Source of the DNA: Spirochaetia bacterium
GTDB taxonomy: Bacteria; Spirochaetota; Spirochaetia; SZUA-6; Bin103
DNA length: 64,000 nucleotides
Assembly (NCBI GenBank): GCA_965198005.1
Contig: CBDAOI010000003.1
Coordinates: forward strand, 320,001-384,000
Reading direction: 5' to 3'
The translations under genes were made by a program, and so were the position numbers. The notes beneath the pieces were generated by a model. It worked only from the letters and a program-made list of their open reading frames with translations, did no database searches and was not told the origin of the DNA. Each line of letters opens with the position of its first letter. Positions within the stretch are counted from its first letter, which is position 1. Positions 5,496 through 24,701 of this stretch are shown here, piece by piece.

Positions 5496-5613
5496 TCCGG
5501 AAGGCGGGCGCGCAAATAGTCGGGCGTACCGATGTGGGTGAGGTTGATGCGCGTCCCCCCCTTGAACGGGATTGGTGCGAAGGCGGTTCGGTATTCTATC
5601 TGTCTGCGCGCGC

Positions 5614-5995: not shown

Positions 5996-5999
5996 CCTG

Positions 6000-6406: not shown

Positions 6407-6508
6407 GGGCACTATTGTAGCAGACGCCTCCGCGTCCCATGCAACCGGCATATTGCTTTGCTTTCAATTGCGCTGACGGCGTACTGCTCGGAGGGGAGAC
6501 CTACTTGG

Positions 6509-7648: not shown

Positions 7649-7653
7649 AGGCA

Positions 7654-7672
7654 CCTTTAGAATACCTAAAGG
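7654..7672. promoter_or_regulatory. palindromic operator over the antitoxin promoter
   Basis: cctttag-aatac-ctaaagg overlapping TATTCT (-10 on minus strand). Confidence 0.55.
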
Positions 7673-7760
7673 GGGTCTTTTTATCCACCTGCGGTGTGCA
7701 GTAGTGGAGCAGGGCCGTCCTGGCCGCGAAGGGCGCCTGCGAACACGTCAACACGTGTAC

Positions 7761-8775
7761 TCAGGGCTGACCAACTCCGCGGCGGCGGGACTTGGCGCCC
7801 CCGTAGCGGCCGGCGGTGCCGCGCAAGCGCGGGTCGAGCAGGTCGCGGACCGCGTCGCCGAACATGTTGAGACAGTACACCGTCACCGTCAGGAACAGTC
7901 CGGGCCACAGTGCCAGCCGCGGCGCCAGCTCCATGTACCTCCGCCCCTCGCGGCTGAGCATGCCACCCCAGCTCGGCACGTTCACCGGCAGCCCGAAACC
8001 GAGAAAGCTCAAGCTGGCCTCGGCGATGATCACGCCGCCGACGTTGATGGTGAAGATCACGATCAGCGGCGCGGTGATGTTGGGCAGCACGTGGCGCACC
8101 AGGGTCCAGCGCCGGCGCGCGCCAACCGCCTCCGCCGCCTGGAAGTACATGTTCTCCTTGACGCCGAACACCGCGCCGCGCACCACCCGCGACGCCGGGA
8201 TGCCGCCGGTGACGCCGAGCACCACGATCACCGTGACGATGCTGCGATCGACGAACGACATGATGGTGAGCAGCAGCAGCAATCCCGGGAACGACATCCA
8301 GGCATCGACGAAGCGCTGGGTGTAGACGTCGACCCTGCCGCCGATTAAGCCGGTGGTGCCGCCAACCAGCAGCGCCACGATGGTTGTTCAGCACGGTCGC
8401 CGTCAGCCCCACCAGCAGCGACACCTGGGCGCCCTTGAGGATCCGCGCCAGCACGTCGCGGCCGGCGTGATCGGTGCCGAGCGGGTGCTCGGCCGAGGGC
8501 GCCTGCAAGCGGTCCTGCACGCGGCCGATGTCGTACACGTGCGGTGTCAGCCGCTCGGCAAAGATGGCGACGAAGATCAGCCCCAACAGGACGACGCCGG
8601 CCGCGGCTCCCAGCGGCTGCTGCCGCAGCAGTCGACGGAAGAAGTCGGCCACCGGTCGGCGCCGGCCGTTGCGCCGGCCGCCGCCCGCGTCACGCGCCGC
8701 CTCACCCACCGGAGCGCCGCCCGCGTCGACGGCGAGCGGCGCATTCGGTGCATTCCGCGCATTCGGCTCACTCAT
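7761..8775 (-). pseudogene. peptide ABC permease DppC/OppC, frameshifted near 8385
   Basis: HPLGTDHAGRD in one frame; EAA loop, HVLPN and EASLSFLG in another. Confidence 0.75.
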
Positions 8776-9712
8776 AGCGGATCCTCGGATCCAGGTAGGC
8801 GTACGCCACGTCGGTCGCGAGGTTGATCAGCACCACCACCGAGGCGAAGAACAGATTCACGCCGGACACCACCGGATAGTCGCGAAGGTTGAGCGCGCTC
8901 AGCATCAGGCGACCGAGCCCGGGCAGATTGAAGATGGTCTCGATGATGACCGAGCCACCGGCAATGATGGGCAGCTGCAGCCCGATCAGCGTGACGACCG
9001 GGATGAGGGCGTTCTTGACGGCGTGGCGCAGCACCACCTTCCGCTCCTCCAGGCCCTTGGCCCAGGCGGTCCTCACGTAGTCCTGGCGCAGGACCTCCGG
9101 CATCATGGTGCGGGTCATGCGCATGGTGCTGGCCGCCAGGTAGGTCCCCAGGATCAGGGCCGGAAAGACGAACATGGTGAGGTTGGCCAGCGGGTCGACG
9201 TCGAAGCGGACGTGTACTATCGGAGGCGTCCAACCCCACCAGATAGCCGGGTAGATGATAACCAGCAGCGCGAGCCAGAAGTTCGGGGTCGCCAGGCCGA
9301 TGATCGCCGCCGAGCGGCCGGCGTAGTCGGCCACCGTGTACTGCCGAATCGCCGAATAGATGCCTATCGGTACCGCGATGATCAGGCCGGTCAGGATTGC
9401 CAGCAGCCCCAGCTCGAGGGTCACGCCTATCCTGGTGGCCATCATCGCCTCCACCGTGTCGCCGCTCGAGCCGGCATACAGCGATCTGCCGAGGGTGCCA
9501 CGCACGACGATGTCCCCGATCCACCGCGAGTACTGCACGTAAACGGGGACGTCGAGCCCGAGCCGCTTCTTCGCGGCAGCGATGTCGATCGCGCCGCCGC
9601 CTTCGTAGCCCATCCGGGCGACCATCACCTCGATGATGTTGCCGGGAATGAAGCGCACCGAGAGAAACACGAGGATGGTGACGACGAACAGGGTCGGGAT
9701 GACCAGCAGCAT
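8768..9712 (-). CDS. peptide ABC permease DppB/OppB, 5' end probably lost
   Basis: LGLDVPVYVQY, TPNFWL, QDYVRTAWAKGL, RDYPVV, LDPRIRY. Confidence 0.8.
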   Translation of the reverse strand: MLLVIPTLFVVTILVFLSVRFIPGNIIEVMVARMGYEGGGAIDIAAAKKRLGLDVPVYVQYSRWIGDIVVRGTLGRSLYAGSSGDTVEAMMATRIGVTLELGLLAILTGLIIAVPIGIYSAIRQYTVADYAGRSAAIIGLATPNFWLALLVIIYPAIWWGWTPPIVHVRFDVDPLANLTMFVFPALILGTYLAASTMRMTRTMMPEVLRQDYVRTAWAKGLEERKVVLRHAVKNALIPVVTLIGLQLPIIAGGSVIIETIFNLPGLGRLMLSALNLRDYPVVSGVNLFFASVVVLINLATDVAYAYLDPRIRYE

Positions 9713-9739
9713 GGCGGCGATGGCGGTTCGTGCTCCCGG

Positions 9740-10110
9740 CAAATATCGGTCGAGCTGACATCGTCGGGAACGCACAGCACCACCGGTCCGGGTTTGCCGG
9801 TGGTGGCCACGCGCAGCGCCTGGCCGAAAATGGCGTCCAGTGACCTCGGATCGGTGACGCGCACCTGCCACTTGCTGACCGGCTTGAACATGTCCATTTG
9901 ATCCAGCGCCGTCACACACGCCCACGCGACCGGTAATGCGCGCGTAGGCATCGGCCGCGTAGCCGCCGCTGCGCCCATCGCGCATCAGCACGTGCGAAAT
10001 GCGACCGGGCAACCGGCGGATGCCCTCGTAGAGAGGCAGCGTCTGACCGCCTGGGACACCGAACACCCTGTCTATGCCGCTTGCCACGAGCAAGCGGGCC
10101 AATCTTTCGC
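9740..10110 (-). pseudogene. TPP-binding (acetolactate synthase-like) N-terminal fragment
   Basis: VFGVPGGQTL, ADAYARITGRVGVC, then ATTGKPGPVVLCVPDD in a shifted frame. Confidence 0.75.
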
Positions 10111-10660
10111 CACCCCGCAGACTGGGGTCCAGCAGGTCTCTCAGCGCGTCGCCGAACATGTTGGTGCCCCAGACAACGGTGAACAGGGACAGCCCGGGCC
10201 ACAGCGCCAGCGCCGGGACCCGCTCCATGTAGCGGCGTCCTTCTCAACTCAGCATCCCGCCCCAGCTCGCGACATCGGGGGGCAGCCCAAGACCGAGGAA
10301 GGTCAGCGACGCCTCCGCAATGATCACGTCGCCTATGGTCACGGTAAAGATGACGATCATCGGCGCCATGATGTTGGGCAGCACATGGCGCAGGATGGTC
10401 CTGCCGCCGCCTGCACGTACACGTTCTCCTTGATGCGGATCACCGCACTGCGCGCGATTCTCGAACCGCTGATGCCGCCGGCAATGCCCAGCACCAGGAT
10501 GATCTGCAGCCGGCCCTGGCCGACCAGCGACATCACCGTAATCAGAATGAGCAGCCCCGGGAAGGCCATCCAGGCATCGACAAACCGTTGCACGACCATG
10601 TCGAGCTTGCCGCCGAAGAACCCGGGCGTCGCGCCGATCAGCAGCGCCACCACCAGGTTG
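10110..10660 (-). pseudogene. second DppC-type permease fragment with several frameshifts
   Basis: QRFVDAWMAFPG, HVLPNIMAP, LWPGL spread over three frames. Confidence 0.75.
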
Positions 10661-10664
10661 ATGC

Positions 10665-10934
10665 TGGTTGCAGCTCGCCCAGTGTCGGGGTCGGGATACC
10701 GAGGCAGCCAATGTGGATGAACGGCAGGATGCGCACTGCCGCCCCGTCGATGGCGGTGCGGCGGAACTCGGCGAAGTTGACGCAGCCGCAGGTGCCCGCG
10801 TCGACCGCGGTGGTGACCCCGCCGCGCAGCGCGGCGCGAGGATCGACGCCGTACAGGCTGCCGTCGATGTTTGCCGCCGGATTGATGACGTGACCTCCCC
10901 GCAGCAGCAGGGTCGGCTCGCGCAGCGTTTTCAT
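10665..10934 (-). pseudogene. amidohydrolase/dihydroorotase-like N-terminal fragment with internal deletion
   Basis: LLLRGGHVINPA...GVTTAVDAGT; HxH region missing. Confidence 0.65.
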
Positions 10935-11068
10935 GTCCGGCGAGCGTGCCAGAGAAGGCGTCGCCCCGTCGCCCCGCAAGGCACGGGATACGCAGCCGGG
11001 GGGGTGCTTACGGGCCGCCCGGATTCCGGTTGTAGATGGCCACGCGGCGAGCTAACTTTAGCACCGAC

Positions 11069-12751
11069 GTGAGCAGCGCCGTTTCCCCCTCCGACTTCAT
11101 TCGCAAGGCGATTCGCCGGGACTTGGCCGCCGGCCGCTTCGACCGGGTCCAGACGCGCTGGCCGCCGGAGCCGAACGGCTACATCGGCCTCGGCCACGCC
11201 AAGGCGATCACCCTCAACTTCGACGTCGCCCGCGAGTTCGGCGGGTTCTGCAGCCTGCGCTTCGACGACACCAACCCGGAGCGCGAGAAGCTGGAGTACG
11301 TGCAGTCGATCAAGGAGGACATCCGCTGGCTCGGCTTCGACTGGGGCGAGCACGAGTACTACGCCTCCGACTACTACGAGCGGCTGTACGAGCTGGCCGA
11401 GCAACTGGTGGAACAGGGGGACGCCTACGTCGACAGCCTGTCGGCGGAACAGATCAGCGAGTACCGCGGGGTACCCACCCGTCCCGGCCGCGAGAGCCCG
11501 GACCGCAACCGGCCGCCGGCGGAGAGCCTGGACCTGCTGCGCCGCATGCGCGCGGGCGAGTTCGCCGACGGCGCCTACGTGCTGCGCGCCCGGATCGACA
11601 TGGCCTCACCCAACCTGAACCTGCGCGATCCGGTGATGTACCGCATCCGCCGCGCCCGCCACTACCGCACCGGCGACGCCTGGTGCATCTATCCGATGTA
11701 CGACTGGGCGCACGGCCAGAGCGACTCGATCGAAGGGGTCACCCACTCGCTGTGCTCACTGGAGTTCGAGAACAACCGCCCGCTGTACGACTGGTACCTG
11801 GACAAGCTGGGGATCTTCCGCTCGCGGCAGATCGAGTTCAACCACCTCAACGTGGCCTACGCCGTGCTGCACAAGCGCATCCTGCGCCGGCTGGTGGCCG
11901 ACGGCACGGTGCGCGGCTGGGACGACCCGCGCCTGCTGACGCTGCGCGGCCTGCGCCGGCGCGGCTTTACTCCAAGCGCCATCCGCGCGTTCGTGCGCAG
12001 CGTCGGCCTCACCAAGACCACGGTGCTGATCAGCTACGCGCAACTGGAGTACTACCTGCGCCAGGAGCTGAACCGGACCGTCACCCGGGTGATGGCGGTG
12101 CTGGACCCGTTGCGGGTGGTGGTCACCAACTACCCGGAGGGGCGGAGCGAGCAGGTGGAGGTCGAGAACAACCCCGAGGACGCGGGCGCCGGCACCCGGC
12201 TGCTGCCCTTCTCGCGCGAGCTGTTCATCGAACGCAACGACTTCATGGAGCAGGCGCCGCGCAAGTTCTTCCGCCTGTCACCGGGGCGCGAGGTGCGGCT
12301 CAAGGGCGCCTACTACATTACCTGCGACCAGGTGGTGAAGGATGACGCCGGACAGGTGACCGAGCTGCGCTGCAGCTACGATCCGGGTTCGCGCGGCGGC
12401 GGCACCGCGGACGGCCGGGTGGTGCGCGGCACCCTGCACTGGGTCTCGGCCGAGCACGCCGTGAACGTGGAGGTGCGGCTGTACGATCACCTGTTCACCA
12501 CCGAGCACATGAACGAGGTGGAGCACGAGCACCCGGACCGCCACCTCAACCCCGACTCGGAGGTGATCCTGCGCGGCTGTCAGGTGGAACCGGGGCTGGC
12601 ACAGGCCCGCCCGGAGCAGCTCTTCCAGTTTCTGCGCCACGGCTACTTCGTGGTCGACAACCGCGATTCCCGCCCCGGCGCGCCGGTGTTCAACCGCGCG
12701 GTCGGCCTGCGCGACACCTGGGCCAAGCTGCAACGCGCCGCCCGGCGCTGA
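11069..12751 (+). CDS. glnS: glutamine--tRNA ligase with atypical signature motifs
   Basis: PPEPNG, RFDDTNP, IYPMYD, THSLCSLEF, GWDDPRL, anticodon beta-barrel motifs. Confidence 0.93.
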   Translation: MSSAVSPSDFIRKAIRRDLAAGRFDRVQTRWPPEPNGYIGLGHAKAITLNFDVAREFGGFCSLRFDDTNPEREKLEYVQSIKEDIRWLGFDWGEHEYYASDYYERLYELAEQLVEQGDAYVDSLSAEQISEYRGVPTRPGRESPDRNRPPAESLDLLRRMRAGEFADGAYVLRARIDMASPNLNLRDPVMYRIRRARHYRTGDAWCIYPMYDWAHGQSDSIEGVTHSLCSLEFENNRPLYDWYLDKLGIFRSRQIEFNHLNVAYAVLHKRILRRLVADGTVRGWDDPRLLTLRGLRRRGFTPSAIRAFVRSVGLTKTTVLISYAQLEYYLRQELNRTVTRVMAVLDPLRVVVTNYPEGRSEQVEVENNPEDAGAGTRLLPFSRELFIERNDFMEQAPRKFFRLSPGREVRLKGAYYITCDQVVKDDAGQVTELRCSYDPGSRGGGTADGRVVRGTLHWVSAEHAVNVEVRLYDHLFTTEHMNEVEHEHPDRHLNPDSEVILRGCQVEPGLAQARPEQLFQFLRHGYFVVDNRDSRPGAPVFNRAVGLRDTWAKLQRAARR

Positions 12752-12967
12752 TTTTTCGGGCGTGTCCCAATGGATCGTCGAGATCGACGGCGACCGCGGC
12801 ATCACCGGGGTCGGCGAGGCGTGCACCGACATCGGCCAGTAGCAGCGCCAGCGACACTCTGGTGAGGATCTATTCGTTCTCTCGGCGGGCGATCGGGTCG
12901 AGGCAACTGGACTTCCGTTCCACGCTCGAGTACTCCTACTACTCCTACTGTCAAAAACGGTTCGCGG

Positions 12968-13873
12968 ATGACGCGCGAGACACTGCAACAGAGACTGGAT
13001 GAACTCAACGTCTGGAAGCGGGGTGATGAGCGCGCTCCCCACAAGCCCCTGCTGCTGCTGCTTGCCATGGGACGGGCGGTACGCGGAGAGGAGCGCCTCG
13101 TGTCCTTCCGCGAGATCGAAGCGCCGCTGACCGGTCTGCTGCGACACTTCGGCCCGCCGCGCCGTGCGTATCATCCGGAATTCCCGTTCCGGTATCTGGC
13201 CACCGACGGGCTCTGGGAAGTGCCCGGAGTCGCGTCCTGGAGCAAGAAGCACTTGCGCGATCGCGGCATCGAGGGCGGTCTCCCGGAGCCGCTGTATCGG
13301 TTGCTGGCAACGGACCCGGCCAGTGCCCGGCTCGCGGCCCGCAGGCTCCTGGATGCACATTTCCCCGTTTCCATGCACCAGCACATCTTGGAGGCCGTAG
13401 GGTTGTTGGGCACCGCCGAGCAGGAGGGGAGGGCGTCCCGGCGTCTCCGCGACCCGCGCTTCCGCGAGGCGGTTCTGACCGCTTACGAGCGCCGTTGTGC
13501 GGTCTGCGACTTCGATCTGCGCCTGAAGGATGACTTGCTGGGACTGGAAGCCGCGCACATCCAATGGCACTCCCACGGCGGCCCCGATCGCGTTACCAAC
13601 GGGCTGGCGCTGTGTACCTTTCATCATGGCGCTTTCGATCGCGGAGCAATCGGATTGGAGAGGGCCACGGAGGGGGCAGGCTACCGGCTCGTAGTGTCGC
13701 GAGAGGTTCACGGAACGAGCCCGGCGGTACGCTGGCTCCTGGACTATCACGACTGCCCGATACGTCTTCCTCAGGAGGGCCTCGGGGAACCCGCAGCTCA
13801 GTACGTTGCATGGCATACCAGGCAGGTATTCCGCGCCCCGCCTCGTGGCCGGGTTCACCCGCCCGCATGCTGA
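12968..13873 (+). CDS. SBD-HNH endonuclease (phosphorothioate-DNA-dependent restriction type)
   Basis: RAPHKPLLLL and PEFPFRYLATDGLWEV; CAVC, EAAHI, NGLALC..HH..FD. Confidence 0.8.
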   Translation: MTRETLQQRLDELNVWKRGDERAPHKPLLLLLAMGRAVRGEERLVSFREIEAPLTGLLRHFGPPRRAYHPEFPFRYLATDGLWEVPGVASWSKKHLRDRGIEGGLPEPLYRLLATDPASARLAARRLLDAHFPVSMHQHILEAVGLLGTAEQEGRASRRLRDPRFREAVLTAYERRCAVCDFDLRLKDDLLGLEAAHIQWHSHGGPDRVTNGLALCTFHHGAFDRGAIGLERATEGAGYRLVVSREVHGTSPAVRWLLDYHDCPIRLPQEGLGEPAAQYVAWHTRQVFRAPPRGRVHPPAC

Positions 13874-13984
13874 CTCGTCATCGTGTGCAACCGCACGGTG
13901 ACACGCGAGGATACCGAACACGGGAGGCGACGCACGCGGGGACAGGAACATACCAAGTTCTTGGCCCTGGAACTGCGGTTTGGT

Positions 13985-14554
13985 TCAGCCTGCCGGGGGC
14001 AGCGCCGCGCACCAGTCGGTAAGGGCGGCCGCGGTGCTGGGGAACGCCAACTCCGACCACGGAATGTCCGGGGCGGCAACCCAGCGCACCTCCTCGGCCT
14101 CGGGTCCCGGCCGCGCTTCGCCGGCCGCCAGCCGCGCGCGATAGACGATCAGCACCACGGGATTGCCGCGCGCGGAATAGACCCCCAGCAGCTCGCCCAG
14201 CGTGATCCGAACCCCGGCTTCCTCGAATGCCTCCCGCACCGCCGCCGCCGGCACCGGCTCGCCGCGGTCGACGTAGCCGCCGGGAAAGGTCCAGCGCCCG
14301 CGCGCCGGCTCGATGGCGCGGCGCAGCAGCAACACCCGCCGGTCACGCTCGACCACGGCGCCGGCGGCCACCTTGGGATCGGCATAGACCACGAACCCGC
14401 ACCGCGGGCACACCGGCAGGGTCTTCCCCTCCACCGCCCGGCGTACCAGCGGTGCCGCGCAGCGGCTGCAGAACGTGGCTGCGACCGCGTGGTGATGATC
14501 CTCGGGATGATGGTGCGGCTGGTGCGGGTTGCGCGGCGCGTGGTGCCGTGCCAC
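13985..14554 (-). CDS. NUDIX hydrolase with Zn-ribbon and His-rich N-terminus
   Basis: CSRC/CPRC; GGYVDRGE...AVREAFEEAG Nudix box. Confidence 0.9.
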   Translation of the reverse strand: MARHHAPRNPHQPHHHPEDHHHAVAATFCSRCAAPLVRRAVEGKTLPVCPRCGFVVYADPKVAAGAVVERDRRVLLLRRAIEPARGRWTFPGGYVDRGEPVPAAAVREAFEEAGVRITLGELLGVYSARGNPVVLIVYRARLAAGEARPGPEAEEVRWVAAPDIPWSELAFPSTAAALTDWCAALPPAG

Positions 14555-14633
14555 GAGTTCCGATTCTACCGGCTTGCTTCCCCACTGTCGCCCGGTGGGG
14601 TGGGGTTCCCCACGCGGGCGACAGTGAGATGGG

Positions 14634-15038
14634 CTACGACGCCCGCTTGGCGGCTGCGGGATCCTTGTCGGCGGCCGCGGCGTCTTCGCCGCTGCCGTTG
14701 GCGTCGGCCCGGCGCTGCGGCTGGAACTCCACGTGCTCGGCGACGATCATCACCTTCGAGCGGGCGTTGCCGTCGCCGTCCTGCCAGCGGTCCTGCTTCA
14801 GGCGGCCCACCACGCGCACGCCCCGCCCCTTCTTGAGGTAGTCGCTGCACACGGTCGCCAGCTTGCCCCAGGCCGTGGTTTCGATGAAGGAGACCTCCTC
14901 CTGGCGCTCCTCCTCCACCTTGTAGGAACGGTTCGACGCCACCACCAGGGTGCACACCGGCGTCCCCTTGGGGGTGAAGCGCAGGTCGGGGTCACGACAC
15001 AAGTTGCCTTCCAGCAACACGGAATTGAGATTGTTCAC
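14634..15038 (-). CDS. ssb: single-stranded DNA-binding protein
   Basis: NSVLLEGNLCRDP, KKGRGVRVVGRL OB-fold. Confidence 0.9.
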   Translation of the reverse strand: MNNLNSVLLEGNLCRDPDLRFTPKGTPVCTLVVASNRSYKVEEERQEEVSFIETTAWGKLATVCSDYLKKGRGVRVVGRLKQDRWQDGDGNARSKVMIVAEHVEFQPQRRADANGSGEDAAAADKDPAAAKRAS

Positions 15039-15176
15039 AATGCCCTCCAGACAGTGTTCTTGCGGCAGCCGCGCCGCGGGCGCTGCTCCGCTCTACCCCT
15101 ACTCAACCGCGGCCGTTCGCTGCCGCTTCAAAGCAGACGCCGGGCTGGCCGGCGCTGCCGCGCACACCGCCGAGCT

Positions 15177-15300
15177 ATGCCGCTGACCCGCATGCACGCC
15201 GAGCTGCTCAGCCCGATCGCCGCGAACCGCAGCCCGGAGAAGCACGTCGCGGGGGCGACCGTTCTGCACTGCGCCGATGATACGCACCGCGATCAAGCGC
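15177..15300 (+). pseudogene. N-terminal fragment of a nucleotidyltransferase-like protein
   Basis: MPLTRMHAELL...NRSPEKHVAGATVLH; resemblance only. Confidence 0.35.
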
Positions 15301-15490
15301 CGCTGGCGTGGGGGCGTGGGCGGGTAATCTTGTCCTGTCCGCTGGGCTATATTGGGTCGATGGATCATTCTGGCCCATTGCTGGGGCAGCGGGGCACGCC
15401 GTGCCAGGCCCACGCCGGAACTGATCCGGAGTCTATATTTGCCGGTACATAAAGGAATTGATACGGGTCGGCGGTGGCCGCCGTGCGGCT

Positions 15491-15506
15491 TGGCACGGTT
15501 CCTGCT
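15491..15506 (+). promoter_or_regulatory. sigma54 (-24/-12) promoter of hsp20
   Basis: TGGCACGGTTCCTGCT with GG-N10-GC spacing. Confidence 0.7.
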
Positions 15507-15547
15507 TTGAGGTTGGCAGAAACTATTTCCTATTCAGGAGGACTGAC

Positions 15548-15967
15548 ATGAGAAGCCTTGTTACCTATCAACCGTCGGCCGCGAGCATCGATCGCTGGTT
15601 CGATTCGCTGTTCGGCGAGTGGGCGCGGCCCAGCGTCGCGGTGTGCGCCCCCACGGTGGACATCCGCGAGGAGCAGGATGCCTATCGCCTGGAGGCGGAG
15701 TTGCCCGGACTGACCGAGAAGGACTTCGCGGTCGACGTCGAGCAGAACCTGCTCACCATCGCGTCTCGCAAGGAGACGGCCACCGAGGATGAGCGCGACG
15801 GGTACGTCATCCGCGAGCGCCGGCGCGGCGCGTTCAAGCGCTCGTTCGTGCTGCCCCGGCACGTCGACACCGACAACATCGGCGCGCAGTTCAAGCACGG
15901 CGTGCTGACCCTGGTCGTGCCCAAGGCCGCGCAGGCGCAACGCAAGGAGATCCCGGTCAAGGCGTAA
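15548..15967 (+). CDS. Hsp20/alpha-crystallin small heat shock protein
   Basis: VDIRE, AELPG, FKRSFVLP, AQFKHGVLTL; RBS aggagg. Confidence 0.95.
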   Translation: MRSLVTYQPSAASIDRWFDSLFGEWARPSVAVCAPTVDIREEQDAYRLEAELPGLTEKDFAVDVEQNLLTIASRKETATEDERDGYVIRERRRGAFKRSFVLPRHVDTDNIGAQFKHGVLTLVVPKAAQAQRKEIPVKA

Positions 15968-16000
15968 CCGCCGCCACCAGACCGACTCGAACCCCCAACC

Positions 16001-16028
16001 GGCCCCGCCAGCGCGCGGGGCCTTTTTT
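16001..16028 (+). terminator. intrinsic terminator
   Basis: ggccccgc-cagcgc-gcggggcc followed by T6. Confidence 0.85.
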
Positions 16029-16035
16029 GCGGCAG

Positions 16036-16057
16036 TCCAGGCGCTTCCCACGTGGCG
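16036..16057 (+). repeat. 22-bp direct repeat, left copy
   Basis: tccaggcgcttcccacgtggcg, identical to 17653-17674. Confidence 0.95.
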
Positions 16058-16072
16058 TGGCGGATCGCGTTT

Positions 16073-17437
16073 CTACTCCACGTCACAGTCAAATAGACTC
16101 ATGCTTTGGTCAAACGAGCCTCTGGCCAAGTGCTCACGAACCAGTTCTACCGACCACGGATCCTTGAGCGTCTTTCTTCTTACGTCCTCTGCGAGCTTCT
16201 CTACGGTCGCGAACTTTCCGCTGAGCGACGTGCCCTTCCTCTCGAAAAACTCGGATCTGCTGAGAACGACCGACACGTCGTTGGTGGGAGCCCGCCATTC
16301 GTAGACGATTGCAACATGCTTCGACGTGCTTCTTCCGTTGTCAAAATAGACCGCCCCGATAGGAACGAGGTCAGAGCCCCTGATCTGTAATCGAAGTTCC
16401 TCTTCGAGCTCCCGTATGGCGCAACGAATAATAGGGTCACCGTTTGCCGCATCTTCGCGTCGAACATGTCCGCCAGCCCAAAGGACGACCTTATTGTGCA
16501 GGGGATTATCACTCGTTCTTTCGCGACGACGAAGACGAAGCACCTCACCGCTGGCATTCCGCACGACCACTATCGGAATCGGTTGGATCCTCGAGGTGTC
16601 GGCCTCCACTTGATCTCGCGGCATGAAATCGGAGTCGCCATGGCGAAGCAACTGGCCAGCGCGATCACTGGAGATGAAGTTCCTATCCGCGAATGTACGA
16701 GTCACGAGACTCCTTGGATATGACAGTATTTCTTCATCGATGTGTTCCTCGATCAATCCAATAACGAGTTCCGCAACTACTTCTGCTGTCCTCTTGGGAT
16801 CGTCCTTTGTTTCTCCCTCGGAGGTATTGATTTCATATATCCGGAAGTCCTTGCTTAGCTGGGCGGCGCGTTGCCGGTTGATGTTCTGTATCTGCTGCAG
16901 GATATCGACGTTCATGATCGAGCCGCCCTTGCCAACCACAGGAAGCACACCCTGTTCACGCTTCATGGCATCGGATGGCGAGGCAATCATCACAAAAACA
17001 GCGGATATTCGTTTCCTCCAGTCATCAATCGAAAGAAATCTCTGAATGACCTCTCGGTCCTCTGTGCGGATTCGAGATATCCGTTCCATCATGGTCAACC
17101 AGCAAATGGAGTCGAATAACCCGCGGTCCAAGAACAGTATCTGGGGATCGTCCGATCGTGGCGGGTTTTGCGTCTTCTCCAAGATCTGGGCAAGAGTCGT
17201 GCACAACGTCCAGATGTTGAAATTGGAATGCTTCTTGTCGCGAATAGGACAGACGGACGCTCGTTCGACCATGACGTCAGTTCGAAACCCGCATCGCTTC
17301 AGAAACGCCTGTACCTGCGTGAGTGTGCTTGTCTTGCCCGCCTTGGGTACTCCCGCGAATTCGATCACCAAGGGTTTTCGCGCCTTCTCGGGGAATTGCA
17401 GAGCCGCTCGTTCGGCGCGTTCCTGGAGATTGGACAT
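16073..17437 (-). CDS. P-loop nucleotide kinase (dTMP kinase-like)-NUDIX fusion
   Basis: IEFAGVPKAGKTS, FLDRGLFD; GGHV...AIRELEEEL Nudix box; visibly less GC-rich than neighbours. Confidence 0.85.
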   Translation of the reverse strand: MSNLQERAERAALQFPEKARKPLVIEFAGVPKAGKTSTLTQVQAFLKRCGFRTDVMVERASVCPIRDKKHSNFNIWTLCTTLAQILEKTQNPPRSDDPQILFLDRGLFDSICWLTMMERISRIRTEDREVIQRFLSIDDWRKRISAVFVMIASPSDAMKREQGVLPVVGKGGSIMNVDILQQIQNINRQRAAQLSKDFRIYEINTSEGETKDDPKRTAEVVAELVIGLIEEHIDEEILSYPRSLVTRTFADRNFISSDRAGQLLRHGDSDFMPRDQVEADTSRIQPIPIVVVRNASGEVLRLRRRERTSDNPLHNKVVLWAGGHVRREDAANGDPIIRCAIRELEEELRLQIRGSDLVPIGAVYFDNGRSTSKHVAIVYEWRAPTNDVSVVLSRSEFFERKGTSLSGKFATVEKLAEDVRRKTLKDPWSVELVREHLARGSFDQSMSLFDCDVE

Positions 17438-17607
17438 CAGGCGGTGAGGTGCTTGCCCGGAATGCGGGTGCCCTCGTACTCGGCGTCGGGGTCGCGTTCG
17501 GCGATGGCGGGCGGGGCGTCGCCCTCCCGGTAGTCGGGCACCGGGTCGGGGCGGCCGCGCCGCAGCACTGGCGGGTCGCGCGGCGTCCGCGCAGTTTCCA
17601 GAGTCAT
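17437..17607 (-). CDS. 56-aa leader ORF translationally coupled (TGATG) to the kinase-NUDIX gene
   Basis: TATCCT 6 nt before ATG; stop overlaps the next ATG. Confidence 0.5.
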   Translation of the reverse strand: MTLETARTPRDPPVLRRGRPDPVPDYREGDAPPAIAERDPDAEYEGTRIPGKHLTA

Positions 17608-17652
17608 GCGCCGAGGATAGCACGAGTTCCGCCGCCGTCGACCATCCCCCCT

Positions 17653-17674
17653 TCCAGGCGCTTCCCACGTGGCG
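17653..17674 (+). repeat. 22-bp direct repeat, right copy
   Basis: identical to 16036-16057. Confidence 0.95.
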
Positions 17675-17700
17675 GCTGCCCGGTGCATGGTCAGTACGTC

Positions 17701-19011
17701 ATGCGGCGGGAAACGATACTCAACATGGAGGGGGCGCGCATCAAGTTCGGGTCGGGCGCGACCCGCGAGCTGGGGTTCGAGCTGCGGGCGCTCGGGGTGC
17801 GGCGCGCGCTGCTGGTAACCGATCCGGTGATGGCCGGGCTCGAGCCCGTGGCGGTGGCGCGGGAGTCGCTGCGCGCCGCCGGCATCGACGCGGTGGTGTA
17901 CGACCGGACCAGAGTGGAGCCGAGCGACGCCTCGTTCCAGGACGCGATTGCGACCGCGGTGGCGGGCCGGTTCGACGGCTTCGTCGCGGTCGGCGGCGGC
18001 TCCAGCATCGACACGGCCAAGGCGGCCAACCTGTACAGCACGCATCCGGCCGATTTCCTGGCGTACGTCAACCCGCCCATCGGCCGGGGCGAGCCGGTGC
18101 CCGGTGCGCTCAGGCCGCTGGTGGCCGTGCCCACCACCGCCGGCACCGGCAGCGAGACCACCGGGGTGGCGATTTTCGACTACCTCGAGCTGGGCGCCAA
18201 GACCGGCATCGCACACCGCGCCCTGCGGCCCGACCTGGGGATCGTCGATCCCGACAACACCCGCACCCTGCCGCCGGTGGCGATTGCCAGCACCGGTCTG
18301 GACGTGCTGTGTCATGCCATCGAGTCGTACACCGCGCTGCCCTTCACGGCGCGCGCGGCGCCGGGCGATCCCGCCCTGCGGCCCGCGTACCAGGGCGCCA
18401 ACCCGATCAGCGATCTCTGGGCGCGGCGGGCGATCGAGCTGGTGGCGCGCTTCCTGCAGCGCGCGCTGCGCGACCCGGACGACGCCGAGGCGCGCAGCGC
18501 GATGCTGCTGGCCGCCACCTGTGCCGGGTACGGCTTCGGCAACGCCGGCGTGCACCTGCCGCACGGCATGTCCTATCCCGTCTCCAGCATGGTCGCCGGC
18601 GGCGCCGGCGGCGGGGACGCGCACCCCGGCGGCTACTTCCCGGCGGGCTATCCGAACGACCACCCGATGGTCCCGCACGGCATGTCGGTGATCCTCAACG
18701 CCCCCGCGGTGTTCCGCTTTACCGGCTGCGCCGACCCGCGGCGGCACCTGGAAGCCGCCCGGCTGTTGGGCGCCGAGGTGAGCGCCGTGCCGGAGGTGGA
18801 CGCCGGCGCCGCGCTGGCCGACGCCATCATCGCGCTGATGCGCGCGGTGGGCATGCCGTCCGGACTGGAGGCGGTGGGCCTGGCGCGCACCCACGTCCCG
18901 GCGCTGGTCGCCGGCACCCTGCCGCAGCACCGCGTCACCAAGCTGGCGCCGCGGCCGGCCACGGAGGCGGACCTGGAGGCGCTGTTCGCTGACGCGCTCC
19001 GCTACTGGTAA
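17701..19011 (+). CDS. hydroxyacid-oxoacid transhydrogenase (Fe-ADH family)
   Basis: GGGSSIDTAK, PTTAGTGSE, RPAYQGANPISD, GVHLPHGMSYP. Confidence 0.9.
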   Translation: MRRETILNMEGARIKFGSGATRELGFELRALGVRRALLVTDPVMAGLEPVAVARESLRAAGIDAVVYDRTRVEPSDASFQDAIATAVAGRFDGFVAVGGGSSIDTAKAANLYSTHPADFLAYVNPPIGRGEPVPGALRPLVAVPTTAGTGSETTGVAIFDYLELGAKTGIAHRALRPDLGIVDPDNTRTLPPVAIASTGLDVLCHAIESYTALPFTARAAPGDPALRPAYQGANPISDLWARRAIELVARFLQRALRDPDDAEARSAMLLAATCAGYGFGNAGVHLPHGMSYPVSSMVAGGAGGGDAHPGGYFPAGYPNDHPMVPHGMSVILNAPAVFRFTGCADPRRHLEAARLLGAEVSAVPEVDAGAALADAIIALMRAVGMPSGLEAVGLARTHVPALVAGTLPQHRVTKLAPRPATEADLEALFADALRYW

Positions 19012-19068
19012 CCACCATAGCCACCACCTCCAGCTTGTCCCGCCGCCGCGCTCGGTGATCCGTTACCG

Positions 19069-20232
19069 TTACCGGGTTTCCGCCCGCGCCACCTCCGCCA
19101 GCAGCGCGTCGTAGTCTGCGCTCACGCTACGCCACGAGAACCGCTCCATCGCCGCCGCCAGGCCGGCCGGGGCCACGACCGGGGGCGCGGCCAGCAACGC
19201 GCGCAGTCGGGCGGCCAGCTCGCTCTCGTCCCGGTACAGGCAGGCGGCGTGATGGCGCGCCGGAATCACCTCCGGGTACGCCAAGCGGTGCGGCAGCAGC
19301 GGGAAGTTGCCGGCCGCTACCGCCTCCACCACGGCGATGCCGAAGTTCTCCTGGAGCGCGGTCGAGACCACCACTGCCCCCCGGCGCAGCCAATCCCAGT
19401 ACGCGGCCCGATCCGGCTCGTAGCCGTACCGAACCAGGCGCGAGCCGAGCCACTCCCGCGCCTCGATGAACTCCCGCGGCACCGCCTGGAAGTTCTCGCC
19501 CAGCAGCGCCACCCGAAACGGCACGCCCGCCGCAGCCACCCGCCGCAGCGCCGCGAACAACAGCTCCGGCTGCTTGTCGAACTCCCAGCGGTGGTTCCAG
19601 ATCACCAGGGGCGGGTCGGCCGGCGCCCCGGGTCGGGCGCCACCGGCCGGCGCCGGCGGCGGCAGCCGGCACCCCGGGTGGAGCACGCGCGCCTTGGCCG
19701 CCAGCGCAGCCGGCACCCAGCGCGGCACGTAGTCGGGCATCTGCCGCAGAAACCGGGGCAGCGCCGCGAAGAAGGAGGCGCGGTGGAACTCCGAGTTGAA
19801 CACGATCACGGTAGCGGCCAGCGCCGAGCTGACGTCGGTGAACCCGAACTGCAGGTCGACCTGCCCGCCCGGCGGCACCGGGTAGCTGAGCTGGTTCTCG
19901 TGCAGGTAGAGCACGATCGGCGGGCAGCGCACCCCCCACAGCGCCTTGAGGTCGGCGGCACTCATCAGGTCGGAGAGCAGCAGGATGTCATACCGCTCGG
20001 GGCGCGTGACGGTGTGCGCGAAGTGGAGGGCGGCGCCGCGCATGCGCCACTTCCAGAACCGCGCCGGCAGCGTGCGCAGCTCGAGCCGGTGGCGCGAGTG
20101 CGCCACCAGGCCGTCGGCGAACGCACGGTGCGAGCCGCCGTAGAACGGCTCCAGAAACAGCACCCGCAGTTGGTCGTCGTCCCGGCGGCCCGACCCGCAG
20201 CCCGAGCTGCGCGCGCGTTGCCCCACCGGCAA
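19069..20232 (-). CDS. DUF3524/GTDC1-like GT-B glycosyltransferase
   Basis: LEPFYGGSH, LPARFWKWRMRG, HENQL.YP, WNHRWEFDK, ENFGIAVVEA. Confidence 0.88.
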   Translation of the reverse strand: MPVGQRARSSGCGSGRRDDDQLRVLFLEPFYGGSHRAFADGLVAHSRHRLELRTLPARFWKWRMRGAALHFAHTVTRPERYDILLLSDLMSAADLKALWGVRCPPIVLYLHENQLSYPVPPGGQVDLQFGFTDVSSALAATVIVFNSEFHRASFFAALPRFLRQMPDYVPRWVPAALAAKARVLHPGCRLPPPAPAGGARPGAPADPPLVIWNHRWEFDKQPELLFAALRRVAAAGVPFRVALLGENFQAVPREFIEAREWLGSRLVRYGYEPDRAAYWDWLRRGAVVVSTALQENFGIAVVEAVAAGNFPLLPHRLAYPEVIPARHHAACLYRDESELAARLRALLAAPPVVAPAGLAAAMERFSWRSVSADYDALLAEVARAETR

Positions 20233-20332
20233 GAGCGCCGCCGAGCGCCCGACCGGCGGCAGTTGTGCGGCAGTCTCGCGGGGGAGGCTGCTCCCGGCCG
20301 GGAACGGCAGCCGAAGTGCCGGTCGTGCGGCG

Positions 20333-21724
20333 CTACGGGCGCACGCGCTTGCGGTCGCGCGGGAACAGGGCCGCCTGCTTGACGCTGGCCAGGCCGAGGA
20401 TGGTCTGCGTGAGCCGTTCCAGGCCGATCGCGAAGCCGCCGTGGGGAGGACAGCCGTAGCGGAACACCGACAGGTAGTCGGTCATCGACGCCGGGTCCAG
20501 GCCGAACCGCCGGATGCTCTCCACCAGCGCGACGTAGTCGTTGATCCGGCGGCTGCCGGAGGTAAGTTCCTGGCCGCGATACAGCAGGTCGAACGACATC
20601 GTCCGGTTGTCGTCCGCCGGATAGGTATAGAAAGGGCGCTTGCGCCGCGGATAAGCGTACACGAACACCGCGCCGATGCCGTGTTCGGCGGCCGCCCAGT
20701 CGCACAACAGGCGCTCCGCTTCCGGATTGATCTCGTACACCCGCGCGCGGCCGCTCCCGGCGGCGGCCACCGCCCGCGCCTCGTCGTAGCTCAGGCGCGG
20801 AATTGCCGCCACCTGCGCCGCGCTCGGCACCTGCGCGTCCCACTGCGCCAGGATGGCGGCCGCGTCCCGTTCCAGCCCGGTGAAGATGGTGGTCAGCAAC
20901 CGCTGCTCCAGGTCGATCAGATCATGCTCGCTGTCGATGTACGCCAGTTCCACGTCCAGCGACACGTACTCGTTGATGTGGCGCGGCGTGTCGTGCTTCT
21001 CGGCCCGATAGGCCATGCCGATCTCGAACACCCGCTCCAGGCCCGCCGCCACCAGCGCCTGCTTGTAGAGCTGCGGCGACTGCGCCAGGTACACGGTGCG
21101 GTCGAAGTACTCCACGGCGAACAGCCCGGTACCCCCTTCGGTGCCGCTGCCGATCAGCTTCGACGACTTGATCTCCGTGAACCCTTCCGCCCGCAGGTGC
21201 TCGGCGAACAGCCGCACGATCTCCGCCTGCAGGCGGAAGATGGCGAGCGTCTTGGGGTTGCGCAGGCTCACCATGCGGTGCTCCAGCAGGGCCTCGAGGC
21301 TGAGCTGCGCCGGGTCCTGGTTCACTGCCAGCGGCAGGTCGGGCGCCGCCGCCGAGATTACCCGGCACGCCTCTGCCTGGACCTCGAAGCCGCCCGGGGC
21401 CTTGCGGTTGGCCGCCACTCGGCCGCTGATTTCCACCACCGACTCCAGCGCGACCGGCCGCCCGGCGGCGTCCGCCGGCGCCGCGCCGAACACCGTCTGG
21501 CACAACCCGGAGCGGTCGCGCAGGATCAGAAAGCAGACCCGCCCCAGGTCGCGCAGCCGGTGCACCCAGCCGCGCAGCCGCACCGTGTCGCCGACGTGCG
21601 CCGCGAGGCCGGCGGCCAGCACGCGGCCGGCGCCGGGTGCGCGTGCGTCCGGCTGGGGTCCGGGTGCTGCCGGTGCGTTACCGTCGGCCGTGCGCCGTGT
21701 CCCGGACTGCCCGCGCCGGCTCAT
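20333..21724 (-). CDS. aspS: non-discriminating archaeal-type aspartate--tRNA(Asp/Asn) ligase
   Basis: GWVH and KAPGG (ND-type residues), YLAQSPQLYKQ, PPHGGFAIGLER. Confidence 0.92.
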   Translation of the reverse strand: MSRRGQSGTRRTADGNAPAAPGPQPDARAPGAGRVLAAGLAAHVGDTVRLRGWVHRLRDLGRVCFLILRDRSGLCQTVFGAAPADAAGRPVALESVVEISGRVAANRKAPGGFEVQAEACRVISAAAPDLPLAVNQDPAQLSLEALLEHRMVSLRNPKTLAIFRLQAEIVRLFAEHLRAEGFTEIKSSKLIGSGTEGGTGLFAVEYFDRTVYLAQSPQLYKQALVAAGLERVFEIGMAYRAEKHDTPRHINEYVSLDVELAYIDSEHDLIDLEQRLLTTIFTGLERDAAAILAQWDAQVPSAAQVAAIPRLSYDEARAVAAAGSGRARVYEINPEAERLLCDWAAAEHGIGAVFVYAYPRRKRPFYTYPADDNRTMSFDLLYRGQELTSGSRRINDYVALVESIRRFGLDPASMTDYLSVFRYGCPPHGGFAIGLERLTQTILGLASVKQAALFPRDRKRVRP

Positions 21725-23207
21725 CCGTCATCCCGCCGGGCCGCTGCCGGGTCATCGGCGCCCGCGGGCGCGGCGGCGTACAGCGCCTCGATCAGCGCGT
21801 GCACCTGGTCCGGCCGGGCGCGGCCGCCGGTGCGCCGCATCATCTGCCCGACCAGGAACCCCACCGGCTTGCGGTCACGCGCCGCGATCTGCTGCTGCAC
21901 CCGCGGGTTGTCCGCCAGCACCTGCTGCAGGATCGGCTGCAGCTCGGCGCCGGCGGTGATCTGGCTCAGGCCGTCCTCGGCCACCACCGCGCGCGGGTCG
22001 CGGCCGTCGCCGATCACCACCGCCAGCACCTGCTTGGCCAGCTTGCCGCTGACCGTGCCCTCGGCCAGCAGGCGCAGCAGCTCCACCAGCCGCCGCGGGG
22101 TGAGGTGGCTGGCCTCCAGCGTCTCCCGGCGCCGGTTGAGGTGCTTGCGCACGTCCGCGGCCAGCCAGCGCGCGGCCAGCGACGGGTCGGCCCCGGCGGC
22201 CACCGTCTGCTCGAAGAACGCGGCGGTGGCGGGCTCGTCGGTGAGGAAGGCCGCCTGCTCCAGGCTCAGGCCGTGCGCCTGCCGCAGCCGGTCGCGCCGG
22301 GCCAGCGGCAGCTCCACCAGCCGCTCCTCGACCGCCGCGAAGAAAGCGCGGTCGGGCCGGAACGGCGGCAGATCCGGTTCCGGAAAGTAGCGGTAGTCGT
22401 CCTCGCTCTCCTTGACCCGCATCGGCTCGGTGCAGTCGCGGTTCTCGTTCCACAGCCGGGTCTCCACAATCACCTCGCCGCCACGGGCGAGCAGCGCGGT
22501 CTGCCGTTCGATCTCGAAGTCGAGGGCGTTGCGGACGAACTTGAACGAGTTGAGATTCTTGATCTCCACCTTGCTGCCGAGGCCGAGGCCGCTGCGGTTC
22601 ACCGACACGTTGGCGTCGCAGCGCAACGACCCCTGCTCCATGTTGCCGTCGCACACCCCCAGGAACCGCACCATCCGGCGGAACTGCTCCAGGAACTGCT
22701 CGGCCGCCCGGCCGCCGGTCAGGTCCGGCTGGGTGACCACCTCGACCAGCGGGGTGCCGGTGCGGTTGTAGTCGAGCAGCGAGACGTCGCCCGCGTGGAT
22801 CATCTTGCCGGCGTCCTCTTCGAGGTGGACCTCGCGGATGCTCACGGTGTCGGCGACGCCGTCGATCTCCGCCCGGAAGCGGCCGGCGCTCCCGATCGGG
22901 GCCCCGTACTGCGAGATCTGATAGTTCTTGGGCAGATCCGGGTAGAAATAATTCTTGCGTTCGAACACCGTGCGGTCGCTCAGGGTGCACTCCAGCGCGC
23001 GCGCCAGCACGTACGCCTTGAGCACCGCCTCCTCGTTCAGCGCGGGCAAGATCCCGGGATACCCCAGGCACACCGGGCAGACATTCTCGTTGGGCCGGTC
23101 GCCGAACGCGTTGCGGCAGTCGCAGAACACCTTGGACGCGGTGATGAGCTGGACGTGAATCTCCAATCCGACGAACCCCCGGTATCCGTTTTCGTTCGTC
23201 TCTCGGC

Positions 23208-23217
<10 letters not shown>
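21721..23217 (-). CDS. gatB: Asp/Glu-tRNA amidotransferase subunit B
   Basis: GLEIHVQL, RKNYFYPDLPK, HLEEDAGK, YRYFPEPDL. Confidence 0.97.

Positions 23218-24701
<1,484 letters not shown>

Follow-up and report, generated by a model that had tools for sequence, protein, structure and literature searches.

The 64,000-nucleotide stretch of Spirochaetia DNA analysed here (hereafter the window) carries, between an hsp20 small heat-shock gene and a gene of the iron-containing alcohol dehydrogenase (Fe-ADH) family, an insert encoding a P-loop kinase-like domain fused to a Nudix domain (kinase-Nudix; protein P0001). The insert is bracketed by two copies of a 22-bp direct repeat, and the features of the locus are collected in Table 1. 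As reported in a preliminary description made from the sequence alone, the two copies are identical: both read TCCAGGCGCTTCCCACGTGGCG on the plus strand, with no mismatch between them, and the identity breaks off exactly at the repeat edge on either side of each copy. No further match to the 22-mer with up to three mismatches was found within the window, and two or more matches did not arise in any of 100 dinucleotide-shuffled versions of it. The genome-wide search proposed with the preliminary description returned only these two matches at the same tolerance in the genome holding the window (G000; 4,894,403 bp in 4 contigs, 90% complete, resembling a metagenome-assembled genome, MAG), and a control pattern returned none. 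With two copies in the whole genome, the 22-mer is therefore not a dispersed repeat. The exact 22-mer had no match either in the JGI metagenome contigs and the GTDB species genomes, where records of this organism or its closest kin are perhaps omitted.

The content of the repeat-bounded block also agrees with what was first described. The stop codon of the 454-codon kinase-Nudix gene stands 15 bp from the left repeat, and the TGA of a short upstream open reading frame (ORF) overlaps the kinase-Nudix ATG. The composition of the gene is indeed foreign-looking: its GC content is 0.48–0.57 as against 0.68–0.78 around it, and its GC content at third codon positions (GC3) is 0.62 as against 0.90–0.94 for hsp20, SSB and Fe-ADH. 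ORF and Pfam checks revealed no recombinase, integrase or transposase in the insert, which has no terminal inverted repeats; no tRNA was found near it, no integrase was found among the genes called in 3660-30229, and Rfam gave no match of any sort at E≤0.1 in 10000-24000. Judged by this content, the insert has no gene for its own mobility and cannot count as an autonomous element. The same Rfam and integrase results speak against an integron gene cassette; an insertion sequence or transposon is contradicted by the missing transposase and inverted repeats and by the length of the duplication, 22 bp here and 57–411 bp at other loci. As regards the att core of an integrase-dependent island, the repeats are perfect, but their sequence derives from the target and is unique, and no recombinase was found in the loci examined, although a helper might be encoded elsewhere.

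Table 1. Features of the insert and its flanks (positions in the window)
Feature	Positions	Strand	Evidence or remark
hsp20 small heat-shock gene, native left flank	15548..15967	+	Pfam HSP20 E 8.2e-23; GC3 0.90
hsp20 intrinsic terminator, 8-bp GC stem (16001-16022) and T-run	16001..16032	+	homologous hairpin in relatives' empty sites
Left 22-bp direct repeat copy	16036..16057	+	duplicated native intergenic sequence
Whole insert, 1595 bp	16058..17652	-	absent from hsp20/Fe-ADH spacer of same-genus genomes
Kinase-Nudix fusion gene, 454 aa (P0001)	16073..17437	-	low GC
C-terminal TM1382-type Nudix module, residues 235-441	16115..16735	-	Pfam, profile and structure matches, invariant motif
N-terminal thymidylate-kinase-like P-loop domain, residues 21-233	16739..17377	-	structure matches, invariant motifs
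Mini-PhyH ORF, 56 aa: first 8 and last 48 codons of a PhyH dioxygenase gene	17437..17607	-	GC3 0.88, native-like
PhyH upstream region brought along in the insert	17608..17652	-	homology to PhyH loci reaches ~17650
Right 22-bp direct repeat copy	17653..17674	+	26 bp upstream of Fe-ADH start
Fe-ADH family gene, native right flank	17701..19011	+	Pfam Fe-ADH E 4.7e-43

Empty sites in relatives and the source of the insert

Forty relatives, ten of them of the same genus, were searched with a 3.3-kb region around the insert. The sister genomes do contain the empty sites that the preliminary description had proposed to look for there: kinase-Nudix lies between hsp20 and Fe-ADH in none of the ten same-genus genomes, and in seven of them (G001, G003, G004, G005, G006, G007 and G008) the hsp20 and Fe-ADH matches are only 46–351 bp apart. 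The spacers of five of these seven were aligned. In G001, G005, G006 and G007 the hsp20 terminator is followed by a single homologue of the 22-mer (TCCATGCGCTTCCCACGCGGCG in G006) and then by the ADH start; the G004 spacer is longer and diverged. Because relatives carry a single homologue, the repeat is duplicated native spacer of the recipient and the insertion is real: the two 22-bp copies are a target-site duplication of hsp20/Fe-ADH spacer sequence. Two details of the preliminary description had to be amended at this point. The core palindrome noticed within the repeat, CCACGTGG, is present in G000, but only there and through a single-base peculiarity, the relatives carrying CCACGCGG. Excision was said to rejoin the hsp20 terminator to the upstream region of a transhydrogenase gene; that junction is the one seen in relatives, but the gene belongs to the Fe-ADH family (with no NCBIfam equivalog at its cut-off) and the name was not confirmed.

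Both the MAG-like state of the G000 assembly (4 contigs) and the abrupt change of composition at the insert raised the possibility that a chimeric join had made the repeat-bounded block. Contigs from all four Logan runs examined (of six listed; two studies, one of them possibly the source sample of the genome) cross the left or the right junction of the filled site with even coverage. The left junction is covered from 15700 to 17411/17481, from 15980 to 17484 and from 15700 to 16610, and the right junction from 17455/17480 to 17748/18000 and at 17601-17711. As these contigs span the junctions, the block is not an assembly chimera, and the kinase-Nudix family is inserted likewise in many independent assemblies; an artefact is thus extremely improbable. 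Among the assembled contigs of the four runs there was no joint, circle or empty-site form, a result that carries no weight against excision since contigs cannot reveal rare forms. The 38-nt left flank plus repeat had no exact match in metagenome contigs, so that no conspecific empty site was found.

The upstream part of the insert is related to another gene. A ~290-aa gene, assigned by Pfam to the PhyH-family dioxygenases, is found in G001, G003, G005, G009 and G010; positions 17441-17583 are 82–84% identical to its 3′ end, and positions 17576-17650 match its start and upstream region. The homology thus runs right up to the right repeat, with ~45 bp of upstream sequence retained. The short ORF shares 32 of 48 residues with the end of PhyH, its first eight residues (MTLETART) align with the PhyH start (MILEVARQT), and by comparison with G009 PhyH 615 bp (205 codons) have gone from it in frame. 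By this homology the leader is a PhyH gene remnant carried over from an earlier location. A full-length PhyH gene is present in G005, and 28 bp beyond it, in the same orientation, lies a kinase-Nudix gene whose product is 79% identical to that of the window. The PhyH remnant and the G005 arrangement together suggest that the insert originated as part of a PhyH/kinase-Nudix locus and was transferred from there into the hsp20/ADH spacer. No intact PhyH orthologue was found in G000, where the best matches are a 46% paralogue and the remnant itself. A motif resembling the 22-mer is absent from four of the five relatives' PhyH loci, and the match in the fifth is unrelated. The genes downstream of G001 PhyH were considered as a toxin-antitoxin pair, a candidate dropped as it had no Pfam support.

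The promoter and leader ORF mentioned in the preliminary description both exist, the former as a putative promoter, but the ORF is a decayed mini-PhyH gene and not a dedicated leader. An extended −10-like box, TGCTATCCT, lies at 17614-17622 on the minus strand, 6 nt before the mini-PhyH ATG, and is conserved ahead of PhyH in five relatives, where it reads TGCTATC(C/G)T or TGCCTATCAT; a simple sigma-70 scan found no promoter for the insert. The conserved TGCTATCCT may be the extended −10 box of a leaderless or near-leaderless transcript, and kinase-Nudix would then be expressed via mini-PhyH in a leaderless or translationally coupled manner. The in-frame deletion preserves the path of the ribosome from the PhyH start to the overlapping TGA, which fits selection for expression of the cargo. 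The last mini-PhyH codons can also pair with kinase-Nudix codons ~294–300 through a perfect 14-nt inverted repeat (16538-16551 / 17441-17454); as 20% of crude Markov simulations reached 14 nt, a figure inflated by palindromes, we treated it as a chance occurrence.

The kinase-Nudix protein and its family

That a kinase and a pyrophosphatase are joined in one chain, as first proposed, was borne out at the level of folds and motifs. These were assessed on an AlphaFold model (predicted local distance difference test, pLDDT, 83.6; predicted template-modelling score, pTM, 0.78; poor at residues 60–70 and the last ten) and on a family alignment of 48 members with 71% mean column identity. Via the predicted model, residues 21-233 superpose on Staphylococcus aureus thymidylate kinase (TMK; 4eaq_B) with Z 17.4 and a root-mean-square deviation (rmsd) of 2.6 Å over 175 aligned residues, and on AbmG and deoxycytidine kinase (dCK) with Z ~16; Foldseek likewise returned TMK, dCK and AbmG, with E ~1e-6. 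The Walker A sequence G29-V-P-K-A-G34-K35-T36 agrees with the G-x4-G-K-[ST] pattern of the TMK/deoxynucleoside kinase (dNK) fold, and G29, K32, G34, K35 and T38 are invariant in the 48 sequences, as are E58-R59-A60-S61 and D104-R105-G106. After strand 3, TMKs carry the motif D-R-[YHF] and dNKs the motif E-R-S. The acidic-Arg pair is present here as D104-R105, with Gly in third position; residues 60–70 are modelled at pLDDT <50. Fold, Walker A and acidic-Arg pair thus liken the domain to TMK, dCK, dNK and AbmG, from which it differs by 10–17% identity to TMK/dNK, the Gly of the DR motif and the Nudix fusion. No kinase family model in Pfam or NCBIfam matched P0001 at E 0.01 or 0.1, respectively, or better; distant family members weakly match Pfam AAA_28, Thymidylate_kin and KTI12 near the cut-off, and the Atlas lead was a NadR/AAA_28 cluster at 0.89. 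We therefore describe the N-terminal domain as TMK/dNK-like by predicted fold and, as no sequence model recognises it, do not claim membership in the TMK/dNK family.

The Nudix part was recognised by Pfam NUDIX (27.9 bits for a cut-off of 21.1) and, by sequence profile, by TM1382 of Thermotoga maritima (PDB 3e57; E 1.7e-12). Again via the predicted model, residues 235-441 superpose on TM1382 with Z 18.9 and an rmsd of 2.8 Å (176/180 residues aligned), and Foldseek matched them to 3e57 with E 1.5e-9 and a TM score of 0.76 on the target, in keeping with the alpha/beta/alpha Nudix fold. The residues G322, E328, R342, E343, E346 and E347 (G322-x5-E328 ... R342-E343-x2-E346-E347) are invariant in the 48 sequences and form a Nudix box in which the spacer between G-x5-E and RE-x2-EE is 13 and not 7 residues long and the final G is missing, a variant shared with TM1382. 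The latter, a putative Nudix hydrolase, differs in being a stand-alone 211-aa protein of unknown function. We take TM1382 to group with Bacillus subtilis YmaB. For YmaB, PMC5960316 mentions preliminary deoxynucleoside triphosphate (dNTP) pyrophosphohydrolase activity.

Between copies of kinase-Nudix, dN is 0.13–0.24 and dS is saturated; where computable, dN/dS is 0.045–0.095. The gene is under purifying selection, which, together with the invariant catalytic motifs, argues for a functional gene in which probably both halves are catalytic, one as a kinase of nucleosides or nucleoside monophosphates and the other as a pyrophosphohydrolase of nucleoside polyphosphates. The most likely target of the protein is the (deoxy)nucleotide pool, with substrates deduced from the two folds: the predicted kinase part most likely phosphorylates a nucleoside or nucleoside monophosphate, and the Nudix part most likely hydrolyses a nucleoside di- or triphosphate derivative. 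The two predicted activities could be convergent, both yielding a monophosphate, or opposed in an ATP-burning cycle.

Searches with the whole protein gave 850 matches at E≤0.001 among 7,999 candidates scored; among the 120 matches listed, identities were 62–80% and nearly all lengths 450–466 aa. The kinase domain alone matched 800 cluster representatives (50% identity) at E≤0.001, and many of the 150 listed are 440–470 aa long. As many of the listed kinase-domain matches are of fusion length, the fusion is the usual form of the family. Names in the sources are generic ('NUDIX domain-containing protein' in Nitrospira, 'hypothetical protein' in Chromatiales). No description of a kinase-Nudix fusion was found in the searchable literature, supplements lying outside it; the phrase matched only text on NadM and NadR. 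In NadM-Nudix and NadR, a Nudix or P-loop kinase domain is fused to a second domain of nucleotide metabolism, as set out in the text of PMC9503650. A NadM-Nudix structure (2qjo) did enter the Foldseek list through the Nudix part, but the alignment is poor (rmsd 21.8 Å) and kinase-Nudix has no HIGH-motif adenylyltransferase domain.

Sixteen loci taken from species genomes belong to Nitrospinota, Verrucomicrobiota, Planctomycetota, Pseudomonadales, Spirochaetia or organisms named only 'bacterium'. At the loci profiled, the GC content of kinase-Nudix never exceeds that of the 3-kb flanks and is clearly lower in most. Judged by match length, a full copy is present in four of the 11 genomes of the window's genus and the Nudix half only in two; in the sister genus, 5/13 genomes have a full copy and 2/13 fragments. 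Kinase-Nudix thus appears, from these sequence comparisons, to be a large and strongly conserved family spreading between phyla and settling beside or at the 3′ ends of host genes. Contig C4 of G000 (~1511200-1511290; L029 5214-5284) bears a second trace of the gene, a 73-bp scar of its last ~27 codons, 78% identical in nucleotides to 16089-16159 and lying just downstream of the end of an SDR-like gene; it points to an earlier kinase-Nudix insertion, later lost.

The ORF is all that the window and most other loci have in common, so far as the ends of the cassette are concerned. Seven loci (L034-L040) have ~165 bp upstream in common (e.g. L035 5835-6000), with a promoter-like TTGCTT-N17-TATAAA site and a ~110-nt leader, and share a short stretch downstream as well. 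This leader, missing from the window's copy, may serve the cassette in translational control. RNAalifold pairs its start with the start-codon region, with compensatory changes at 3 pairs and a weak −3.3 kcal/mol; Rfam returned no known RNA family on the seven related loci, nor on one leader region.

Other insertion sites and the route of entry

We compared the left and right flanks of the gene in 21 loci: the window, L015, L024-L028, L032-L042 and L044-L046 (L043 and L047, being too short, were left aside). Direct repeats bracket the gene or its small island in nine, corresponding to ~5 independent sites. Besides the perfect 22 bp in the hsp20/Fe-ADH spacer of the window, these are 226 bp at 100% identity plus 64 bp at 95% at the end of a peptidase S15 gene (L034), 411 bp at 97% at the end of an OppC-like permease gene (L042), 150 bp at 89% (L038) and 69 bp at 88% (L035) at the end of a 235-aa gene beside HpaB, and 57–77 bp at 75–87% at the end of recJ (L024, L026, L027 and L028). 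In L034 the far repeat copy (7437-7728) reproduces the 3′ part of the peptidase gene in miniature, with an in-frame internal deletion of 504 bp (168 codons) that parallels the 615-bp in-frame deletion of the window's PhyH remnant. At L038, a cassette with an AbiV gene and the kinase-Nudix cassette stand in tandem, partitioned by three copies of one 3′-end sequence.

The 3′ end of recJ serves as a slot for more than one cargo in the sister genus (g2), where kinase-Nudix occupies it in four genomes and a Phd/YefM-ParE pair in two; in four species with kinase-Nudix at this slot a Zn-ribbon ORF lies alongside. The two genomes with the toxin-antitoxin pair, G022 (L053 2609-3264) and G017 (L056 2251-~2860), are both of those in which the slot was seen end to end without kinase-Nudix, and in each the pair lies between the recJ end and a second, decayed copy of it. 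In G012, a low-GC island of 4.1 kb at the recJ end (L025 2000-6150) contains a gene of MqsA-like antitoxin type and a 625-aa ParA/CbiA-like protein (PADLOC candidate PDC-M28B); kinase-Nudix is convergent with recJ in it, and in the island neither a copy of the recJ end nor, among the ORFs called, a recombinase or integrase was found.

The preliminary description left open a trans-mobilised or a recombination-captured cassette. The latter fits better, because the 22-mer is native and unique, a PhyH remnant was carried along, the cassette ends are not conserved and terminal inverted repeats are lacking. The explanation we favour, with moderate confidence, is that a 1.6-kb fragment of a PhyH/kinase-Nudix locus was captured by one-off, non-site-specific recombination, giving a non-autonomous cassette that encodes a nucleotide-pool enzyme. 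The source locus would belong to this lineage or to a close relative, and in it a kinase-Nudix gene acquired horizontally would have lain directly downstream of PhyH, as it still does in G005. The fragment would have entered the hsp20/Fe-ADH spacer once, by an illegitimate or repair-associated event, and the 22-bp duplication would have arisen then, through the filling-in of a staggered break or a template switch resuming 22 bp upstream. PhyH may have lost its 205 internal codons before or after the move, and its remnant (upstream region, start and stop) would serve as an expression module translationally coupled to kinase-Nudix. We place the making of the duplication at insertion because the PhyH fragment reaches the repeat, the PhyH loci are without the motif and the cassette is without defined ends; the mechanism itself is an inference from these junctions.

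Several observations weigh against this explanation. No flanking repeat was found at 12 of the 21 loci. A core of 32 bp is invariant in the five repeat copies of L035 and L038, which resembles an att site more than a random duplication. Since the decayed recJ repeat also surrounds cargo other than kinase-Nudix, it belongs to the slot and may predate the gene, which weakens duplication by the insertion itself as a general rule. No donor sequence, circle or empty-site read showing the entry of the fragment was found. Finally, the 22-bp duplication is longer than known transposase duplications, yet neither is it known to us as a documented mark of any specific repair pathway.

A non-autonomous site-specific element of the CIME/IMEX type, with the 22-mer as att core and a recombinase supplied from elsewhere (a host Xer-like enzyme or a helper integrase), would account for the perfection of the direct repeats, for the tandem array of L038 with its three repeat copies and invariant 32-bp core, and for the repeat-bounded recJ slot with alternative cargo; duplicated gene 3′ ends are moreover typical of integrase-borne islands. 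Like integrase-less att-flanked islands, the loci described here have cargo between direct repeats that copy a gene 3′ end, at times in tandem arrays and with no recombinase inside. Cis-mobilizable elements and the tandem accretion islands of the ssrA type use a defined att core served by a known integrase family, and Xer-dependent dif/pdif modules offer a further comparison. The kinase-Nudix loci depart from such islands in their targets and repeat lengths, which vary by site, in their unconserved ends and, for the window, in an intergenic repeat. A site-specific origin is also hard to reconcile with a 22-mer that is native target sequence and occurs nowhere else in the genome or the two collections scanned, with a piece of the PhyH locus reaching right up to the repeat, and with repeats of 22 to 411 bp at unrelated targets, for which a single recombinase specificity could not account; no integrase was found in the called loci or in the G012 island, and no joint was seen in contigs, the latter a weak point as contigs cannot show rare forms. 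For the window we consider this origin unlikely.

We hold it quite unlikely, too, that a circle carrying the gene and a fragment of the target integrated by a single Campbell-type crossover of host RecA, duplicating the common segment. Such an event accounts for the variable lengths and for long near-identical repeats (226 bp at 100%, 411 bp at 97%), for a far copy that is a shortened target gene end, as in L034, and for the window's insert as a circular permutation of PhyH remnant and gene. The circle would, however, need to carry the hsp20/ADH 22-mer, whereas its other homology is to PhyH and the motif is in no PhyH locus examined; moreover, a length of 22 bp does not exceed the minimum that RecA exchange usually needs. 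A trans-acting recombinase or a Campbell crossover would nevertheless fit some other loci better than one-off capture, the former L035 and L038 with their conserved core, the latter L034 and L042 with their long repeats. Target duplications of variable length without a recombinase make these loci a tractable case of how a single gene may enter genomes outside classical mobile elements.

Possible function and neighbouring genes

The preliminary description further suggested an anti-phage function. Among characterised systems, DcdV comes closest in architecture and lifestyle, to judge from the passages on it in bioRxiv 10.1101/2021.03.31.437871. According to these, DcdV of Vibrio cholerae VSP-1 consists of a P-loop kinase and a deoxycytidylate deaminase, both needed to corrupt dNTP pools; it is restrained by the upstream co-transcribed DifV RNA, and its expression lowers phage titres. 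Kinase-Nudix resembles it in joining, within a single chain, a P-loop kinase-like domain at the N-terminus to a nucleotide-modifying one at the C-terminus, and in being encoded on mobile DNA behind a short upstream element. It differs in its C-terminal domain, which is Nudix and not a deaminase of the DcdV type, and in its upstream element, a gene remnant that varies between loci. By this analogy an anti-phage role is plausible. Nucleotide-pool manipulation of this kind, if true, would be a pyrophosphatase-based addition to nucleotide-depletion defences.

Defence genes are otherwise rare neighbours of the homologues. Among the 16 other loci run through PADLOC, a defence-type gene is directly adjacent in two (AbiV in L038 and the PDC-M28B-like candidate in L025), and two more have one within ~4 kb (DndC-like in L037; capP-like in L033, where Pfam PIN and Mut7-C domains are also nearby). 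The window itself is a core-gene region. The homologues sit mostly beside housekeeping genes, a context that the preliminary description named among the grounds for refuting its proposal, yet some of their slots are common with ParE or AbiV cargo. This sharing of slots is only suggestive as a pointer to a role in conflict, although a defence or addiction role would explain why kinase-Nudix interchanges there with toxin-antitoxin and Abi cargo.

Corruption of the nucleotide pool in defence or addiction is the role we prefer; it is unproven, argued by analogy, and deserves about a third of the weight. Plain house-cleaning of nucleotides is about as likely: a horizontally transferred salvage or house-cleaning enzyme with no part in phage conflict or addiction is a serious contender, although itself short of an even chance. 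Both domains have the folds of metabolic enzymes, and purifying selection is strong. Several further results favour this reading. The insertions lie mostly beside housekeeping genes and sometimes within operons: in a Verrucomicrobiota MAG (L045 5986-7349) the gene is wedged between nuoG and nuoH, reading in the direction of the NADH dehydrogenase operon and with spacers of at most ~15 bp, and other tight insertions follow gcvP (L041) or separate holA from a tadA-like deaminase gene (L046). No PADLOC model, those of dCTP-deaminase systems included, matched the kinase-Nudix protein at E≤0.1; neither the protein nor the leader was assigned to a kinase or defence family by PADLOC, NCBIfam or Pfam, and protein searches of phage records, plasmid records and IMG/VR contigs found no relative. 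A mere housekeeping enzyme is, for its part, difficult to square with a patchy and fast-changing distribution within one genus (4/11 full copies, 2/11 Nudix halves and the extra scar in G000), with a persistently low GC content in high-GC hosts, with the slots common to ParE toxin-antitoxin and AbiV cargo and with an architecture that parallels DcdV.

Conserved yet of foreign composition, gained and lost at the genus level, inserted singly by core genes and sharing slots with ParE and AbiV, kinase-Nudix behaves as accessory or selfish cargo and not as core metabolism. The bolder proposition that it represents a recombinase-less class of stowaway genes, copied in at gene ends by host repair with duplications of 22–411 bp, spreading among phyla, using captured remnants of host genes as promoters and encoding a DcdV-like single-chain effector whose corruption or futile cycling of a (deoxy)nucleotide pool would serve abortive infection or post-segregational addiction, strikes us as improbable when taken as a whole. 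Nucleotide-pool effectors and integrase-less cassettes are already known kinds. What stands out is an uncharacterised, strongly conserved cargo found across phyla, whose recurrent insertion without a recombinase is accompanied by target duplications of variable length and by slots in common with toxin-antitoxin and Abi genes, and this comparative pattern is of more interest than the single locus.

The 26 kb surrounding the insert consist of core genes (Glu/Gln-tRNA synthetase, SSB, hsp20, Asp-tRNA synthetase, GatB, an amidase family gene, RecR, YbaB and DnaX). The nearest transposase gene, a degraded IS66 fragment, is ~10 kb away. It forms part of a degraded mobile/defence patch (5033-6451 and 7761-10653) comprising an AbiEii fragment, the C-terminal fragment of the IS66 transposase and a DUF433 gene, beside which the sequence of an ABC permease (BPD_transp_1) is split over several ORFs, one of them also matching the N-terminal domain of TPP enzymes. 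Closer to the cassette, 2.2 kb upstream of it, an HNH_2 protein encoded at 12968-13873 matches the PADLOC models for HNH and type IV methyl-directed restriction; as the GC3 of its gene is 0.75 as compared with ~0.9 in the neighbours, it may be another small insertion.

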